From Candidatus Gottesmanbacteria bacterium (GTDB lineage Bacteria > Patescibacteriota > Microgenomatia > 2-02-FULL-39-11), in the NCBI GenBank assembly GCA_016195685.1, contig JACPZE010000003.1, forward strand, positions 899 to 64,898: a stretch of DNA of 64,000 nt, given 5' to 3'. The notes under the pieces are model-generated. The model was not told the DNA's origin. It made no database searches and saw only the letters and a list, made by a program, of their open reading frames with translations. The position numbers were made by a program, and so were the translations under genes. Positions within the stretch are counted from its first letter, which is position 1, and every line of letters begins with the position of its first letter. Positions 18,057 through 28,989 of the stretch are shown here, piece after piece.

Positions 18057-18365
18057 ATGAAAGCTGGAATACATCCAACTTGGTATCCGGACGCACAAGT
18101 AGTGTGTGCCTGTGGTAATTCTTTTACGATTGGTTCTACCAAGCAATCTATCCACATGGAAATTTGCCACAAGTGTCATCCCTTCTTTACAGGAGAGATG
18201 AAATTCGTGGATACTCTGGGTAGAGTAGAAAAATTCCAAAAAAAGCAAAAAACAGCTGCCGCCCAAGCTCAAGTCCTGGCAGACAAGAAGAAAAAGAAAT
18301 TGCAAAGACAGGAAGAAGTCAGACACCCCAAATCCCTTCGAGAGATGTTAATGGGATCCTCATGA
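18057..18365 (+). CDS. rpmE: 50S ribosomal protein L31 with Lys-rich C-terminal extension
   Basis: [29 protein letters not shown]...[10 protein letters not shown]; start at internal ATG 18057; TGA stop overlaps next start. Confidence 0.85.
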
Positions 18366-19060
18366 ATAATGATGTTGCCATACTAGAAATAAGAGGTGCC
18401 ACCGGTGGCGATGAGGCGAAAATCTGGGCAAATGACCTAGTGCGTATGTATAGCCGATATGCTTTATCCAAAGGATGGACCGTGCAATCACTGGATGATG
18501 CGGTAATAAGGATAAAAGGATTAAATGCTTTCTCGCAACTTCAGTATGAAGGAGGGGTACACCGCGTACAGCGGATACCTAATACTGAAAGATATGGCAG
18601 AATCCATACTTCTACAGCAACTGTCGCAGTGCTCCCTGAAATTGCCGACAATCAAATTTATATTAACCCTTCTGAACTGGAATGGGATTTCTATAGAAGC
18701 GGCGGTCATGGAGGCCAAAATGTAAATAAAGTATCAACTGCAGTACGGTTGCGACATAAACCTACCGGCATGGTAGTCACGGCCTCACAGGAAAGATTCC
18801 AGGAACAAAACCGCAGAATAGCCTTAAATTTACTCCGCTCCAAATTATGGGAAATCGAAGAGGAAAAGCGCCTTGTGGAAATCGGCGGAGCCAGAAGTGC
18901 AATTGGTAGAGGCATGAGGTCTGAAAAGATCCGCACGTATAATTTTCCGCAGAACCGCCTTACTGACCACCGCATCAATAAAAGCTGGCATAATTTGGAA
19001 GATATTATGAACGGAAAATTGGATAAAGTCCTTACTACGTTACTGAGTACCGTCGTTTGA
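18362..19060 (+). CDS. prfA: class I peptide chain release factor (RF1-like) lacking N-terminal domain 1
   Basis: GGQ motif [11 protein letters not shown]; RF1-like recognition region [26 protein letters not shown]; begins at the position equivalent to E. coli RF1 residue ~105 ([11 protein letters not shown]). Confidence 0.75.
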
Positions 19061-21512: not shown

Positions 21513-22238
21513 TTAATCTAGAATTACTATCTGTTTCTGGTTAGGTCTTAACCAAACTTTTTTCTTATCACAGTTTATCAGTTTCTCAAAAATATTTTCT
21601 TCAACCAAAATCCAGGGTAAAATAGTATCTCCTTTTATTTTTTGCATCACCATTCCTTTTACTCCGATTACTGAAAACTTTACTAATGTTGCTTCTTGTG
21701 CATATTTGCATAAAACTACAGATTCTTCAAGATTATCGTGACTTTCCAATACGCCTACGACATCACCTTTTAAATATTTTAATTCACCCATTACATCCTT
21801 ACCATCACCTTTTATTCCTTTTACGCTTTGGTTTTTCACTTCAATTTCAATAGCAAATTTACCTATAGCCATAATCTTACCGGAAACTGGAGACACCAAA
21901 TCTTTTTTCGCATCAATGGAATATTTGGTAAGACTGATTGTACCTTTTGACAAATCCATTTCCAAAAGTTCTCCGTCTATCGGGCTTTTAACTATTGTGG
22001 AGGAAAAAAATCCTTTTTTTTCTGCAATTATATCTCCCGCATGAATCTTGTCTCCTACTTTTCTCTGAAGATACCCTGCAATTTTTGCACTGTTTACTCC
22101 TAGTAATTTTGCCAAGTGGATTGTTTCTAGATTGTGGACTTCATCAAACTTTGCCAAAGTAGTCTTATCGGTAATATGATCTCCTTCCTTAACTAATATC
22201 TTTGCGGAAGAAGTTATAGGCAGTGTTATGATACTCAT
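21513..22238 (-). CDS. hypothetical protein co-transcribed with rpsR
   Basis: ORF only; possible barrel-sandwich-like N-terminus; no confident family. Confidence 0.35.
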   Translation of the reverse strand: MSIITLPITSSAKILVKEGDHITDKTTLAKFDEVHNLETIHLAKLLGVNSAKIAGYLQRKVGDKIHAGDIIAEKKGFFSSTIVKSPIDGELLEMDLSKGTISLTKYSIDAKKDLVSPVSGKIMAIGKFAIEIEVKNQSVKGIKGDGKDVMGELKYLKGDVVGVLESHDNLEESVVLCKYAQEATLVKFSVIGVKGMVMQKIKGDTILPWILVEENIFEKLINCDKKKVWLRPNQKQIVILD

Positions 22239-23602: not shown

Positions 23603-24679
23603 TTATGCATTTACTTTAAACTCAACAACATCACCATCTCTTATAATATAATCACGCCCTTCCATCCTCACTTTTCCCACCTCTCTGCACTTCGTCCATC
23701 CTCCATATTTTACAAATTCATCAAAAGAAACAGTATCAGACTTTATAAATCCTTTTTCAAAATCGGTATGGATGACTCCAGCAGCTTGTGGCGCCTTCAT
23801 CCCTTTCTCTATTGTCCATGCTCTCACTTCTTTTTCTCCGCAGGTAAGAAATGAGATAAGACCTAGTGACTCATAAGCAAGTCTAATTAGCCTATCCAAT
23901 CCGGCTTCTTTCATACCGAGCTCTGCGAGGTATGCCATTTGTTCTTCTTCGGACAAACTGGATAATTCCGATTCAATCTTGGCCGAGATAGACATGATTG
24001 GCTTTAAACCAAAGGTATCTTGCAATTCCTTTGCTATTGCACCCTCCGCAACATTTGCTACATAAATCACAGGTTTCATCGTCAACAAATGCAAATCTTT
24101 TATTGCTTCCTTTTCCTCATCAGTTAGATTTACGTCTTTTGCTAAAATGCCTTTATCTAATTCATTTATAAGTTTCCCAACTAGTTCCGGAGTAAATTTC
24201 ACTTCCTTATTTTTTGTATCTTTGTTTTTTGAAAGAGTTTGCAGGTCTGCCAAAATAAGTTCTGCTTTTATAATCTCAACATCGCGTTTCGCATCCACGC
24301 TTCCAGAGACATGAATAATATTCGTATCCTCAAAAAACCTAACTACATGACAAATGATATTCACTTCACGAATATGTGACAAGAATTTATTCCCCAATCC
24401 CTCTCCTTCTGCGGCCCCGGAAACGAGTCCCGCGATATCTACAAATTGTACTGTTGCCGGCAATATAGGTGGCAATTTATCCATCTTTATTTCTTCTTTA
24501 GTAATTTTTGCTAGCCTTTCTAAGCGTGGATCCGGTACCGGCACCACTCCAATATTCGGCTCTATGGTAGCAAATGGATAATTGGCCACAAATGCCGTTT
24601 GTCTTTTCAAAAGCGCATTAAAAAGAGTACTTTTTCCTACATTCGGAAGGCCTACTATACCTACTGAAACAGATGACAT
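23603..24679 (-). CDS. ychF: ribosome-binding ATPase YchF (Obg family)
   Basis: G1 motif GIVGLPNVGKSTLFNAL; C-terminal TGS domain. Confidence 0.9.
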   Translation of the reverse strand: MSSVSVGIVGLPNVGKSTLFNALLKRQTAFVANYPFATIEPNIGVVPVPDPRLERLAKITKEEIKMDKLPPILPATVQFVDIAGLVSGAAEGEGLGNKFLSHIREVNIICHVVRFFEDTNIIHVSGSVDAKRDVEIIKAELILADLQTLSKNKDTKNKEVKFTPELVGKLINELDKGILAKDVNLTDEEKEAIKDLHLLTMKPVIYVANVAEGAIAKELQDTFGLKPIMSISAKIESELSSLSEEEQMAYLAELGMKEAGLDRLIRLAYESLGLISFLTCGEKEVRAWTIEKGMKAPQAAGVIHTDFEKGFIKSDTVSFDEFVKYGGWTKCREVGKVRMEGRDYIIRDGDVVEFKVNA

Positions 24680-24774
24680 TTCTAAGATTATATCATCCCT
24701 TTGTGCTGAAGAATAATTAAATTCTGCTTTGATAGAAGATTGTGTATTAGCGCAACTATTAATATACTAGTTAT

Positions 24775-25776
24775 ATGGATAATAACGTTTGGATGGAAAT
24801 TCTTGAATATGCACGATGGTCCGCATCACCCCACAATGTTCAACCATGGAAAATTGAGGTCGTTTCAGCAACTGAAGCAAATATTCTATACGATCCAATA
24901 CGTTTACTACCTGTTGAAGATCCTACAGGTTGTTTTACAACTGCCGGTTTTGGAATGTTCATTGAAAACTTATCTGTTGCTGCCCACAGTAAAGGCTTTA
25001 AAATTGAAGAAAAATATACTGAAACAATTTTAGACCATACGAAAAAAGAATTAACTCCTTTTGCCAAGATAAAATTAGTAAAGACCGATGATAAAGAAAT
25101 ATTCGATAGAGAGCTTATAACAGAGCGCCGTACCTCCAGACTTCCTTATAATGGGAAACCTGTAACCGATGATGTAATAAGGGAACTTGTAAAAATTGCA
25201 ATGGAATTTGGACATACTTTTACATTTAGTAAAGACATGAGGATGATTAATTGGGTATTAACGCTTAATAGAGATACCATTTTTTATGATATGAATGATG
25301 CTGAATCAAGAAATGAAATAGGTTTATGGCTACGGTATTCAGCAGAAGATGCTCACAAAAAGAATGATGGCTTATGGGCTCATTGTATGAATTTCCCAGG
25401 AGCACTTATGTACCTTTTTTTTCATACACGCTGGTTATTTAATTTTCCTATAATAAACTCTTTTGTTAAATATTTATATTTGCAATCAACATCAGGAACG
25501 CGTACAGTTGCTTGGCTATCTGGACCATTCAATACACCTTATGACTGGTTAAATGCAGGACACATGCTTGCTCGCTTGTGGCTCTGTATGACCAAACACC
25601 ATGTATATCTTCATCCATTTGGATCTATTATTACTAACAAAAAGTCGCATAAACGATTACGAGAAAAATTTAATGTTGAAGAAAAAACCAATAAAATATG
25701 GTTAATCGTTCGGTTGGGATACAGCAAATTACCACCTCGCAGTCTACGATTAAGTGTGGCAGATATTTTAGTATAA
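24775..25776 (+). CDS. nitroreductase-superfamily protein (extended, two-lobed)
   Basis: N-terminal nitroreductase signature EYARWSASPHNVQPWKIEVV; 333 aa, roughly twice a single nitroreductase domain. Confidence 0.55.
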   Translation: MDNNVWMEILEYARWSASPHNVQPWKIEVVSATEANILYDPIRLLPVEDPTGCFTTAGFGMFIENLSVAAHSKGFKIEEKYTETILDHTKKELTPFAKIKLVKTDDKEIFDRELITERRTSRLPYNGKPVTDDVIRELVKIAMEFGHTFTFSKDMRMINWVLTLNRDTIFYDMNDAESRNEIGLWLRYSAEDAHKKNDGLWAHCMNFPGALMYLFFHTRWLFNFPIINSFVKYLYLQSTSGTRTVAWLSGPFNTPYDWLNAGHMLARLWLCMTKHHVYLHPFGSIITNKKSHKRLREKFNVEEKTNKIWLIVRLGYSKLPPRSLRLSVADILV

Positions 25777-25778
25777 AT

Positions 25779-27287
25779 ATGAAGCAAAAAATCATTTTTT
25801 CATTTCTTAAACTTGCTAAAATTATTCGTAATCTATCATCATCTTCTGATAAAGCATATAAACTCTTGTTTACTCCTGGGTTTGAAAATTTTCGTTGGAT
25901 GATAGGAAAATGGAAAGCATGGCAAGTTTTTGAACATGCAAAAACAACAACTCCCGCATATAAAGATTTCCTTGTAAAACATCCTAAAGCGAAAATAATT
26001 ATGAGCGGTTGGAATCCTGACTTATCTTCGATTCCTGTGATGGATAAAGAATCATATATCAAAAAGTATTCTATTGAATCAAGATGCATAAATGGACTTA
26101 TTCCTTCGCAAGGCGTTGTAATTGATGAATCCTCTGGCACCAGCGGAACGCCAAATAATTGGGTCAGGGGACCAAAAGAAAGAGCAGACGTTAAAAAAGC
26201 ATTGCAGGTTGCCCTCCACTTTCATTTTGGGGACAAACCAATATTTATTATAAATGCTTTTGCACTTGGCCCATGGGCAACAGGCATGAATGTTTCGATG
26301 TCGCTTGTTGATATATCCGTACTTAAATCGACAGGTCCAGATATTAAAAAAATTGAAAACACTTTAAACTTTTTTGGCCCAAAGTATAATTATGTCATTA
26401 TGGGTTACCCGCCCTTTCTGAAATCTTTAGTTGACAGTACAACGGTTGATTGGAAAAAATTTAAAATTACTGCAGTTTTTGGTGGAGAAGGAATGAGTGA
26501 AGGAATGAGAACATACTTAAATAAGGTTTTCCAAAAATGTTATGGATCATATGGAGCTTCTGATTTGGAAATTAATATTGCAGCAGAAAATGATTTTACA
26601 ATTGCCTTGCGTCAATTACTCATTGAAAATAAAGAGCTGACAAATAAAATTATAAAAAATCATAACAGCTCTATACCTATGATATTTCAATATAATCCTT
26701 TGGATTATTTTATTGAAAACAATGATTCGGGCGAACTTATAGTAACACTCTGTCGTCTTGCAAATGTTTCTCCAAAGATTAGATATAATATTCATGATAC
26801 TGGCCATGTACTACGATTCTCACAACTCAAAAAAATCTTGGATGAATGTAAAATCAAAATTGCTGATATTTGTAAAGAATATTCTGATCTGCCTCTTCTT
26901 TTTCACTACGGCAGAGCAGATATGGCTGTTGCATTTTATGGATGTAAAATTACTCCTAGCGACATACAGGAAATTATTTACAATAACCCCGATTTAGCTA
27001 AAATAATTAGTTCGTTCTCTTTGATCACTTCTGAAGATGAGAATGCAAATAAGAAATTGACATTGGCACTGGAAATGGCTGAGGGGAAAGAATTAATTGC
27101 AAAGAATATTGAAATGTATCGAGAAGAAATTTTTGAGCACTTGAAAATTATAAATCAAGACTATAGGGAAGCTTCAAAGATGATACCAAAAGGATTTGAA
27201 CCGGGGTTAGAATTTTATGCTTTTGGAGCTGGTCCTTTTGCGACCAATGATATTCGATTAAAAAAACATTATATCCAGAATCGTTAA
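25779..27287 (+). CDS. ANL-superfamily adenylate-forming enzyme of the GH3/PaaK (F390-synthetase-like) type
   Basis: adenylation P-loop-like SSGTSGTPNNW; YGASDLE; GELIVT...RYNIHDTGHV resembling GH3 YELVVT...RYRLGD; start at internal ATG 25779 just after previous stop. Confidence 0.6.
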   Translation: MKQKIIFSFLKLAKIIRNLSSSSDKAYKLLFTPGFENFRWMIGKWKAWQVFEHAKTTTPAYKDFLVKHPKAKIIMSGWNPDLSSIPVMDKESYIKKYSIESRCINGLIPSQGVVIDESSGTSGTPNNWVRGPKERADVKKALQVALHFHFGDKPIFIINAFALGPWATGMNVSMSLVDISVLKSTGPDIKKIENTLNFFGPKYNYVIMGYPPFLKSLVDSTTVDWKKFKITAVFGGEGMSEGMRTYLNKVFQKCYGSYGASDLEINIAAENDFTIALRQLLIENKELTNKIIKNHNSSIPMIFQYNPLDYFIENNDSGELIVTLCRLANVSPKIRYNIHDTGHVLRFSQLKKILDECKIKIADICKEYSDLPLLFHYGRADMAVAFYGCKITPSDIQEIIYNNPDLAKIISSFSLITSEDENANKKLTLALEMAEGKELIAKNIEMYREEIFEHLKIINQDYREASKMIPKGFEPGLEFYAFGAGPFATNDIRLKKHYIQNR

Positions 27288-27294
27288 TTCTTTT

Positions 27295-27849
27295 ATGAAT
27301 GTAGAAACAACTAGTCAAAAATTGGTCAACGGATTATTACTGGAACAGACCATTGAGTTTTTGAAAACTAAAAAGGGTGAAAACGCTGTTTCAGAACTGG
27401 AAAAATCACTCGGCCCATTTATTTTTGATCAATACCGTATGTATCCGGTCGAGCAATTAATTTTATTGCAACGAGAAGTTGTAAAATCAGCCTTTGGCAG
27501 CGAATCTGATGAGGGATATTATATTTTGGGAAAGAATGCTTTCGACAAGTATGCTCATACTTTGGTTGGGGCGACTTTGACAAATATTTCTTCTTCCCCA
27601 ATTGAAGTTTTAAAGAAAATCCAGGATATTTGGAATTCAGTCGTTAATTTCGGAACAAGGAAATTGATTGAAGCAGACGAAGTAAAAGGCAAGGCAATAA
27701 TTGAAATTGCGGATGACCCCAGAAACTATTCTTATTTACGCGGGGTGATTGAAGGGGGGTTAAATGCAACACATGTAATTAATCCTTCAACCAAAATTAT
27801 TTACAAAGATAACAATAAATACGATATAGAAATAACATGGCAACCCTAA
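27295..27849 (+). CDS. hypothetical protein (184 aa), third gene of the module
   Basis: ORF only; 8-nt spacing from upstream gene. Confidence 0.4.
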   Translation: MNVETTSQKLVNGLLLEQTIEFLKTKKGENAVSELEKSLGPFIFDQYRMYPVEQLILLQREVVKSAFGSESDEGYYILGKNAFDKYAHTLVGATLTNISSSPIEVLKKIQDIWNSVVNFGTRKLIEADEVKGKAIIEIADDPRNYSYLRGVIEGGLNATHVINPSTKIIYKDNNKYDIEITWQP

Positions 27850-27861
27850 AAGTAGTATAAG

Positions 27862-27900
27862 AACAAAGGATTTATCTTTTCTTTGTTTTTTTCTTTTTTT
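27862..27900 (+). terminator. intrinsic terminator after the three-gene module
   Basis: hairpin aacaaagg-atttatctttt-ctttgtt followed by a long T-run. Confidence 0.5.
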
Positions 27901-27951
27901 TCATCATAACTATTTTCACCTCCTTTTTCTACAATTAATCTGTCAGGTAAC

Positions 27952-28989
27952 TTACTCTACTGATTCTCTTAAGCTCTTCAAAAAACACGTGAGTAATTTA
28001 ATGCAATTTACCACATCATTCCAGCAAAATAATTCTCCAGGAAAGTGTGTGTACCTTACCGGTATACCAACAACAATAGTAGCAGTTCCTATACCACTAA
28101 TTTGAATAGGATCGGCATCAGTTGCCGTGGGTCCTGCATCTGCTTCTACCTGATAAGGAATACTTTCTCTTTTTGCAATTTCTTTTAGAATAAAAAATAA
28201 ATCGGGATTTGTATTGCTCCCTCTTGTAATAACTGGTCCTTCTCCGAGTACAATTCTTCCAATTTCTTCTTTATCTGCTATGGGAGTATCGGTTGCTCTA
28301 ATAGTATCAATAATTATTGAATATTTTGGCTGTATGTGATTTACTGCAGGCTGTGCTCCACGCGAACCAACTTCTTCTTGTGTAGTTGTTACTGCGTATA
28401 GACTCACATTTGGATTTGGCTTTTGTGATAAGGTATGAATAAGTTGAATTAGGGCATATACTCCTAGTTTATCGTCTGCGCCTCTGGCTAAAATAAATGA
28501 GTCTTGTAAAACTTTACAAGAGGTATCAAAAGTAACTGTATCTCCTATTGCAACTAATTGTGCTGCCTTCTTATTTGCACCAATATCAATCCATAAGTCT
28601 TTATAAGGAATGCTCTTTTCCGACTCTTTAGTACTGGCAGTATCCCAAACTTCTTCTCGTCCAATAATACCAGGTACTATCCCATTTGATGTATGAATAT
28701 TGACGGCTTGACCCACAGCAATATCTGCATCAATACCTCCAACAGGTTGAAAATAAATAAAACCCTCATCGTTAATAAATGTAATAATGAAACCTACTTC
28801 ATCCGCATGAGCTGTAATGAGTACCTTTTGAGGTCCCTGTCCAACTTGCACTGTAAAATTATTTAGTATATCGGCAAATTTAATTTCGGAGTATGCAGAT
28901 AATTCTTTTGCAACAAGTTTTTGAAAAAGTGATTCATTTCCAGAAATACTGGGAATTGCAACAAGTTTTTGAAATAATTCATCAACCAT
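27952..28989 (-). CDS. M42-family aminopeptidase (FrvX/CelM-like)
   Basis: HADEVGFIITFI metal-binding motif and overall M42 architecture. Confidence 0.8.
   Translation of the reverse strand: MVDELFQKLVAIPSISGNESLFQKLVAKELSAYSEIKFADILNNFTVQVGQGPQKVLITAHADEVGFIITFINDEGFIYFQPVGGIDADIAVGQAVNIHTSNGIVPGIIGREEVWDTASTKESEKSIPYKDLWIDIGANKKAAQLVAIGDTVTFDTSCKVLQDSFILARGADDKLGVYALIQLIHTLSQKPNPNVSLYAVTTTQEEVGSRGAQPAVNHIQPKYSIIIDTIRATDTPIADKEEIGRIVLGEGPVITRGSNTNPDLFFILKEIAKRESIPYQVEADAGPTATDADPIQISGIGTATIVVGIPVRYTHFPGELFCWNDVVNCIKLLTCFLKSLRESVE

Follow-up and report, generated by a model that had tools for sequence, protein, structure and literature searches.

What do three tightly spaced genes on one strand of a Candidatus Gottesmanbacteria contig do, and do they form a single functional unit? 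These genes, here called g1, g2 and g3 (Table 1), lie in the window, the 64,000-nucleotide (nt) stretch of contig JACPZE010000003.1 that was analyzed, and had been described in an earlier note on this DNA as a three-gene module of a double-size nitroreductase-fold protein, an adenylating enzyme and an unrecognized protein. Comparison with related loci revealed that the conserved unit is the g1–g2 pair, not the triad. g1 is predicted to be a flavoprotein of the Acg/flavin-dependent oxidase (FDO) type and g2 is a divergent adenylate-forming enzyme of the PaaK clade; we tentatively propose that the two could couple activation of a carboxylate to flavin-dependent oxidation of the same molecule.

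The g2 family proved to be large. More than 3060 clusters at 90% identity matched g2 with E <= 1e-3, the match at rank 120 still being 53% identical, and 373 clusters at 50% identity did so with E < 1e-30. A scan of GTDB with one genome per species (about 185,000 representatives) yielded 485 g2 relatives that matched the search patterns. The taxonomic listing rests on the best 80 of these 485, whose hosts comprise Patescibacteria, Gaiellaceae and other Actinomycetota, Melainabacteria/Obscuribacterales, a cyanobacterium, many Bacteroidota (Hymenobacter, Pedobacter, Flavobacteriales), Planctomycetota, Gemmatimonadaceae, a Rhodanobacter bin and a Thermoplasmata archaeon. A g1 homolog (full length, 32–53% identity) was located directly upstream of the g2 homolog in 84 of 85 loci from at least eight phyla, and the single unpaired locus was cut at a contig end. 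The distance from g1 stop to g2 start had a median of 4 nt, with overlap in 22 of 68 pairs. The pairwise identities of g1 and g2 were correlated (Pearson 0.89, 68 loci), and the pair was therefore inherited as a unit. Natural fusions were also found: P0335 (806 amino acids [aa]) and P0363 consist of a g2-like N-terminus followed by an Acg-like double nitroreductase C-terminus. A looser arrangement was present in Nonomuraea gerenzanensis (NZ_LT559118.1; locus L091), where a distant g2 (34% identity) and a full-length g1 (21%) lie on the same strand 1.5 kb apart. The g1–g2 pair is a translationally coupled two-gene cassette with a patchy, horizontal-transfer-like distribution.

The complete triad was confined to a narrow group. 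The g1–g2–g3 order, with gaps of 1–7 nt and followed by a convergent M42 aminopeptidase gene, was shared by all seven Gottesmanbacteria-like contigs with available context (the window, L086, L087, a Joint Genome Institute [JGI] contig and L092–L094), in which g2 identity was 63–75%. g3 was absent from all 85 other g1–g2 loci; the more distant Patescibacteria L010, L016 and L020 carry the pair without it. Present in seven of seven close relatives and in none of 85 others, g3 thus makes a genuine triad, one that elaborates the pair in a single lineage. Co-occurrence in other genomes, by which the earlier note had suggested that the three-gene module be checked, was thus seen for g1 and g2, and for the triad only within one lineage of the candidate phyla radiation (CPR). 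The M42 gene, convergent to g3 in all seven contigs despite their differing upstream sides, may reflect plain synteny or a functional link.

No third partner of the pair was detected. All-versus-all clustering of open reading frames (ORFs) of at least 70 aa from 81 loci gave a maximum recurrence of 9 of 81, all of them Hymenobacter-type carotenoid genes, and when the 150 flanking genes closest to the pair were surveyed with Pfam, nothing recurred, acyltransferases included, and no ThiF family was present. No viral contig encoded a relative, and only two "plasmid" records did so (a megaplasmid and a chromosome-sized replicon), both non-mobilizable. Two kinds of neighborhood were observed locally. 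In the Hymenobacter loci L032, L036, L037, L039, L044, L045 and L047 and in the "Rhodanobacter" bin L042, the pair adjoins carotenoid-like genes; the upstream neighbor of about 500 aa in these eight loci matched the Pfam Amino_oxidase/FAD families (crtI-like), and a 280-aa crtB-like neighbor as well as crtZ-like, MerR-type and extracytoplasmic function (ECF) sigma neighbors were named by eye from sequence. If this carotenoid cluster is light-regulated, the pair there could share that regulation. In the actinomycete metagenome contigs L003/L004 (2616-8011), which represent one lineage only, the pair is divergent from a riboflavin operon of ribD, ribE, ribBA and ribH.

The first gene of the pair encodes the two-lobed, 333-aa nitroreductase-fold protein that had been recognized earlier from the motif RWSASPHNVQPWKI, and this description held. 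g1 matched Pfam PF00881 (nitroreductase) with 44.8 bits (gathering score 23.5, E 2e-11). An AlphaFold2 (AF2) model based on 19 homologs reached a predicted local distance difference test score (pLDDT) of 91.8, and its best Foldseek match, MsAcg (PDB 2YMV; E 3e-15, template-modeling score 0.72), extended over the whole chain; every other match, to ordinary nitroreductases, spanned about half of it, and the FbiB C-terminal domain was among the structural matches. The g1 family sequence profile likewise reached 2YMV at E 6e-13. PSPHNxQPW, RRTSRL, LHPFGSxITN and a C-terminal Arg, which are flavin-phosphate-type motifs, were invariant in the 19 homologs. The full-length alignment to NCBIfam NF047509 (Acg family FMN-binding oxidoreductase; residues 9-332 of g1 against 2-319 of 319) scored 158.2 bits, below the cut-off of 199, and scores for the ThiF-fused Rv1355c-type (oxazolone) NCBIfam models were far lower at 37–40 bits. 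By model and motifs, g1 is best described as a predicted single-chain pseudo-dimer of two nitroreductase lobes that belongs to the Acg/FDO subgroup, just outside the curated Acg family.

The FDO subgroup of the nitroreductase superfamily was defined by Grigg et al., and its members are in general associated with lipid genes (PMC10404671), a weak hint on the substrate. With the Acg family (Acg/Rv2032, Rv3131 and Rv3127 of Mycobacterium tuberculosis; MsAcg of M. smegmatis), g1 has in common the full-length fold, a size of about 330 aa, the single-chain pseudo-dimer and the N-terminal PSxHNxQPW motif, but it lies under the family cut-off and is only 17% identical to MsAcg. The Acg paralogs of M. 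tuberculosis are members of the DosR regulon of hypoxia and nitric oxide (PMC11841060) and have not been reported beside an adenylating enzyme, whereas g1 is always paired with g2.

A nitroreductase-fold protein next to an ATP-dependent enzyme might also mature a peptide that is made by ribosomes and then post-translationally modified (RiPP), with g1 as a SagB/McbC-type oxidase of azolines or dehydro-residues and g2 as the activating enzyme. Nitroreductase-fold flavin mononucleotide (FMN) dehydrogenases do oxidize azolines, and RiPP chemistry includes ATP-dependent activation. However, no YcaO, E1-like protein or conserved partner or precursor ORF of at least 70 aa occurred near the pair (the length at which the screen of the related loci began), the 95-nt gap upstream of g1 in the window is too short for a precursor ORF, and g1 matched the Acg type with no SagB-type model among its NCBIfam matches. 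We regard RiPP maturation as an extremely remote prospect.

By itself, the g2 protein of the window had no Pfam, NCBIfam (E <= 1) or PDB sequence match, and the curated PaaK models (TIGR02155 / NF041878) did not reach it. At the family level, TIGR02155 (PaaK) gave a weak match in 14 of 17 g2 relatives (best E 3.5e-10), and the family profile reached PaaK-type chains at E 5e-7. The AF2 model (pLDDT 80.8, predicted template-modeling score 0.82) matched PaaK1, PaaK2 and BT_0428 by Foldseek at E about 1e-15, the PaaK and BT_0428 aryl-CoA ligases being the nearest solved structures. The motifs SSGTSGTPNNW, YGASDLE and GELIVT...RYNIHDTGHV, from which an adenylating-enzyme fold had been predicted, are all present, and the ANL core was invariant in 17 g2 sequences (P-loop DESSGTSGxPxNW, YGASDLE, PKxRYNIxD, hinge GRxD...GxKxTP and C-terminal D..R.K..Y), including the C-terminal Lys of ANL enzymes. 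By predicted fold, family-level matches to PaaK and these invariant motifs, g2 is a divergent PaaK-clade adenylate-forming enzyme. It is neither GH3-like nor F390-synthetase-like, the assignment that the earlier note had preferred: the F390 synthetase model TIGR03335 appeared in one of 17 family members (E 0.11) and did not match the window protein, and the only Pfam GH3 model to appear, GH3_C (PF23572), was likewise found in one of 17 (E 0.074). The PaaK-family enzymes PaaK1/2, BT_0428, HCL, NatL2/AjiA1/ClxA and EhpF share with g2 the two-domain ANL fold together with the P-loop, a YGxSE-like motif, RYxxxD, the GRxD hinge and the C-terminal Lys; g2 differs in being only 13–18% identical to them (13–16% to PaaK), about 70 residues longer with an N-terminal helical extension, and placed in a context without paa or benzoxazole genes.

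Analysis of g3, which had been left unrecognized, revealed a DUF2378 protein. It scored above both curated cut-offs, with 55.7 bits for PF09536 (DUF2378; cut-off 22.2, E 7e-15) and 54.5 bits for TIGR02265 (cut-off 25), a paralogous family of Myxococcus, and nine of nine g3 subfamily members matched DUF2378. All nine also matched the H-NOX domain model HNOB (PF07700) weakly (best E 9e-7), the window protein with 19.1 bits, below the gathering score of 25.5. g3 appears to have no His at the canonical proximal position, a site estimated only by rough offset from the matched ranges; H88, conserved in eight of nine sequences, lies at another position than the canonical heme His. Close homologs are rare, with only eight in a set of 5.8 billion proteins. 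In the Gottesmanbacteria lineage, g3 would probably serve as a binder or carrier of a hydrophobic substrate or product, or as a sensor.

The annotation of g2 in NCBI as "CoF synthetase" raises an alternative in which g2, as an F390-synthetase-like enzyme, adenylylates a flavin- or deazaflavin-type cofactor that g1 binds, sequesters or delivers, so that the pair would be a redox or oxygen-stress device. F390 synthetase itself falls into the PaaK-like group (COG1541). In the Acg fold a lid covers the FMN, and F420 is bound by some domains of the nitroreductase fold, as illustrated by FbiB among the g1 matches; the riboflavin operon in one actinomycete locus, the carotenoid genes with a MerR-family regulator in Hymenobacter, the DosR membership of the Acg paralogs and the H-NOX-like character of g3 would all suit such a device. 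Against this stand the poor showing of TIGR03335 (F390_ftsA) compared with the PaaK models among the 17 family members and the restriction of the riboflavin and carotenoid neighborhoods to single lineages each. An Rfam gathering scan of the window and 11 diverse loci detected tRNAs only, with no FMN or other riboswitch and no leader RNA upstream of g1. F420 synthesis is not known from the majority of host groups (Bacteroidota, Melainabacteria, CPR). Cofactor modification is quite unlikely in our estimation.

The JGI label of the g2 family, phenylacetate-CoA ligase, leads to a different alternative, namely that g2 is an ordinary aryl- or acyl-CoA ligase and g1 a nitro-, quinone- or xenobiotic reductase, which together catabolize or detoxify an environmental aromatic acid. 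The nearest solved structures of g2 and the nitroreductase-family annotation of g1 agree with this, and the patchy, horizontal-transfer-like spread of a self-contained cassette fits an accessory function. The low identity of g2 to PaaK and its failure to reach the curated PaaK models argue otherwise, as do the lack of paa or other thioester-processing genes beside the pair and its absence from mobilizable plasmids and phages. Acg-type proteins, in addition, do not use NAD(P)H in the manner of classical nitroreductases (PMC11841060). That g1 and g2 are strictly paired, co-vary and occur fused points to two steps on one substrate, which also speaks against independent ligase and reductase activities, and we consider catabolism or detoxification decidedly improbable.

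A closer parallel was found in the oxazolone synthetases. FDO-type nitroreductases act with ATP-dependent adenylating/cyclizing ThiF enzymes, fused or neighboring, on N-acyl amino acids, which are desaturated and cyclized to give acyl-oxazolones (PMC10404671, PMC12856293, bioRxiv 10.1101/2020.06.11.147165, PMC12479983). OxzB (a ThiF–nitroreductase fusion of Pseudoalteromonas rubra), TyzB with TyzC, and TrzS (Rv1355c of M. tuberculosis) likewise combine a lid-bearing monomeric FDO with an ATP-dependent carboxylate-adenylating partner encoded by an adjacent, overlapping or fused gene. The partner in these systems has the ThiF/E1 fold (PF00899), whereas that of g1 has the ANL/PaaK fold; an N-acyl amino acid synthase gene is adjacent in OxzAB, TyzABC and TrzAS, whereas none recurs beside g1–g2; and g1 scored far better on the Acg/Rv3131 model than on the Rv1355c-type models. 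Since the pairing of an FDO with an adenylase, the overlapping genes and the occasional fusion are as in the ThiF systems, we propose by analogy that g1–g2 may be an ANL-type, non-orthologous analog of the ThiF+FDO oxazolone synthetases, in which carboxylate activation is coupled to flavin oxidation of one shared substrate. We hold this reading tentatively, at somewhat less than an even chance.

In the proposed scheme, g2 would take the place of the E1-type adenylase of OxzB, TyzB/TyzC and TrzS and use ATP to convert the carboxylate of the substrate to an acyl-adenylate, which would then cyclize intramolecularly or pass to a nucleophile. Through its flavin, g1 would oxidize the same molecule by two electrons, and desaturation between C-alpha and C-beta is the most plausible form of this step. 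Folds, motifs and linkage were observed; from them we infer that the substrate is shared, what kind of redox step takes place, the analogy itself and the role of g3. The most plausible candidate substrates are N-acylated amino-acid-like or fatty-acid-like carboxylates. The general idea of a flavin redox enzyme coupled to an acyl-adenylate enzyme acting on a carboxylic substrate, already put forward from the window alone, is supported by the adjacency in 84 of 85 loci, the identity correlation and the fusions.

Several points weigh against the oxazolone-synthetase analogy. Neither the 81 clustered loci nor the 150 flanking genes showed a conserved enzyme that could supply the substrate, for example an N-acyl amino acid synthase, and by profile score g1 is nearer to the Acg/Rv3131 group than to the oxazolone group fused to ThiF. 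The FMN of Acg itself is buried, and we know of no activity for this protein. The hosts include minimal, presumably anaerobic CPR bacteria, in which one would not obviously expect an oxidase that needs O2 or secondary metabolites of a lipid-like kind. In the published view, FDO-B, the Acg group, takes no part in oxazolone synthesis (PMC10404671). Finally, g2 is very highly conserved, with about 50% identity from phylum to phylum, as might equally be expected if the substrate were a macromolecule or a cofactor.

This conservation (on average 69% identity per column, with some 130 positions invariant) also suits a further alternative, in which the pair modifies a universal carboxylate on a macromolecule, for example a protein C-terminus or, like the ThiF-like TcdA, the threonylcarbamoyl group of tRNA t6A, by adenylation-driven cyclization followed by flavin oxidation. 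The absence of a substrate-supplying neighbor and the presence of the pair in reduced CPR genomes accord with it, and TcdA, which acts on tRNA, is a relative of the ThiF enzymes that partner FDOs (bioRxiv 10.1101/2020.06.11.147165). Both proteins are mildly basic (median isoelectric point 8.3); charge was dropped as a hint of nucleic-acid binding, being uninformative since the proteins are only mildly basic. The support is, however, purely circumstantial: housekeeping enzymes of modification do not typically show so patchy a spread (485 species among about 185,000), and no nucleic-acid- or protein-binding domain was detected with Pfam or NCBIfam. To our knowledge, the characterized PaaK-clade enzymes act on small molecules. 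We consider macromolecule modification very improbable.

A broader reading is that g1–g2 is an unrecognized, widely and horizontally spread system that makes or repairs one ubiquitous molecule, that it reveals a catalytic role of the Acg-type (FDO-B) proteins, and that in CPR bacteria g3 connects it with the sensing of gases or redox state. We consider this unlikely. If true, the molecule would be a new class of dehydro- or cyclized acyl/amino-acid metabolite, or a universal modification of a cofactor or macromolecule, and the role so revealed would extend to the M. tuberculosis proteins Acg, Rv3131 and Rv3127, which DosR regulates.

As had been suspected, the pathway does not appear to have been described before. 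Full-text literature searches revealed no account in which an Acg-type flavoprotein and a PaaK-type enzyme form a pair, and nothing on the pair under F390 synthetase + nitroreductase or under DUF2378; the supplement of PMC10404671 contains no neighborhood data for the non-ThiF FDO subclusters. The g2 proteins represent a large enzyme family, in at least 485 GTDB species, that is still without a Pfam or NCBIfam model or a solved structure. The pairing provides the Acg/FDO-B group, whose role has been debated for more than a decade in tuberculosis research, with a testable partner chemistry, ATP-dependent carboxylate activation. If the analogy with the oxazolone synthetases is true, their "adenylase + FDO" principle extends to a second, unrelated adenylase fold. 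Retention of the cassette in minimal CPR genomes suggests a function of real physiological value. Because cultured carriers are available (Hymenobacter spp., Pedobacter frigidisoli and Gemmatirosa kalamazoonensis), experiments are feasible.

The wider g2 family also contains fused and unpaired relatives. In P0360, P0340, P0347 and P0358 (970–1170 aa), the g2-like adenylase forms the C-terminus. The N-terminal region of P0360 matches the LuxD-like acyltransferase model (PF02273, E 1e-10), a hint that substrates across the wider family may be fatty-acyl compounds; that of P0340, P0347 and P0358 had no significant Pfam match, with only a weak alpha/beta-hydrolase match in P0340 (E 0.012). No FDO gene is adjacent to P0340. 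A 557-aa protein beside a LuxD-like/g2-like fusion (L088) was considered as a g1 relative and rejected (hhalign probability 0.2%, no Pfam domain). A separate g2-like subfamily of ten proteins (P0297, P0304, P0305, P0313, P0334, P0353, P0361, P0365, P0383 and P0390) has the P-loop DTSTGTTGKPT and a conserved, unrecognized N-terminal domain of about 150–200 aa ("NPRxxxGKxGI", "YLNRxSxIKWLNAQ"). This subfamily is not FDO-paired, and in L090 its gene is located beside genes for an acetyltransferase, lnt, lpxC and fabZ.

Returning to the window, which is low in GC (about 35–40%), the three same-strand ORFs were confirmed at the positions first reported (Table 1). The tight linkage held, and direct reading of the sequence corrected the spacers to 2 nt (AT) between g1 and g2 and 7 nt (TTCTTTT) between g2 and g3, instead of 3 and 8 nt. 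The g2 protein is one residue shorter than the 503 aa first given. A longer g2 start at 25698, obtained from the mechanical ORF, was rejected in favor of the ATG at 25779 because the homologs align from M28 of that longer form, which is residue 1 of the 502-aa form, and because the longer form overlaps g1 by 79 nt. The terminator that had been placed after g3 amounts to a weak AT-rich hairpin with a T-run, which a G+C-based terminator scan did not call. Promoter-like matches in the gap upstream of g1 were no more numerous than expected from shuffling. In a search of PADLOC for defense systems, none of g1, g2 and g3 matched any model at E <= 1.

Table 1 Features of the g1–g2–g3 locus and other features mentioned in the text. 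Positions are those of the window, except for the L091 genes.
Feature	Position	Strand	Length	Description
g1	24775-25776	+	333 aa	Predicted monomeric pseudo-dimeric ("double") nitroreductase-fold protein of Acg/FDO type, putative FMN
g2	25779-27287	+	502 aa	Divergent PaaK-clade ANL adenylate-forming enzyme; family without Pfam or NCBIfam model
g3	27295-27849	+	184 aa	DUF2378/TIGR02265 protein, weakly similar to H-NOX (HNOB); third operon gene, lineage-specific
Intergenic region upstream of g1	24680-24774	.	95 nt	Presumed to hold the operon promoter
ychF-type GTPase gene	23603-24679	-		Divergent from g1; borders the 95-nt upstream gap
Weak AT-rich hairpin and T-run	27862-27901	+		Possible intrinsic terminator; 7-bp stem AACAAAG/CTTTGTT (arms 27862-27868 / 27881-27887), 12-nt loop
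M42 aminopeptidase gene	27952-28989	-		Convergent to g3; PF05343 1e-73; syntenic neighbor of the triad
Distant g2 and g1 genes of L091	6001-7296 and 8854-9732	same strand		413-aa ORF without Pfam domain between
Ribosomal protein L31 ORF	17925-18365
Class-I release-factor ORF	18362-19060	+	232 aa	PCRF positions 100-194 and RF-1 domain only
Barrel-sandwich-hybrid protein gene	21513-22238	-	241 aa	RnfC_N/NqrA_N-like sole domain

Two further observations were made elsewhere in the window. The class-I release-factor ORF, which begins 4 nt before the end of the ribosomal protein L31 ORF, lacks ~100 residues that a normal RF1/RF2 has at its N-terminus. The gene for the barrel-sandwich-hybrid protein is situated between rpsR-ssb-rpsF and two ORFs that, judged by sequence only, encode proteases, one tail-specific-protease-like (431 aa) and the other HtrA-like.

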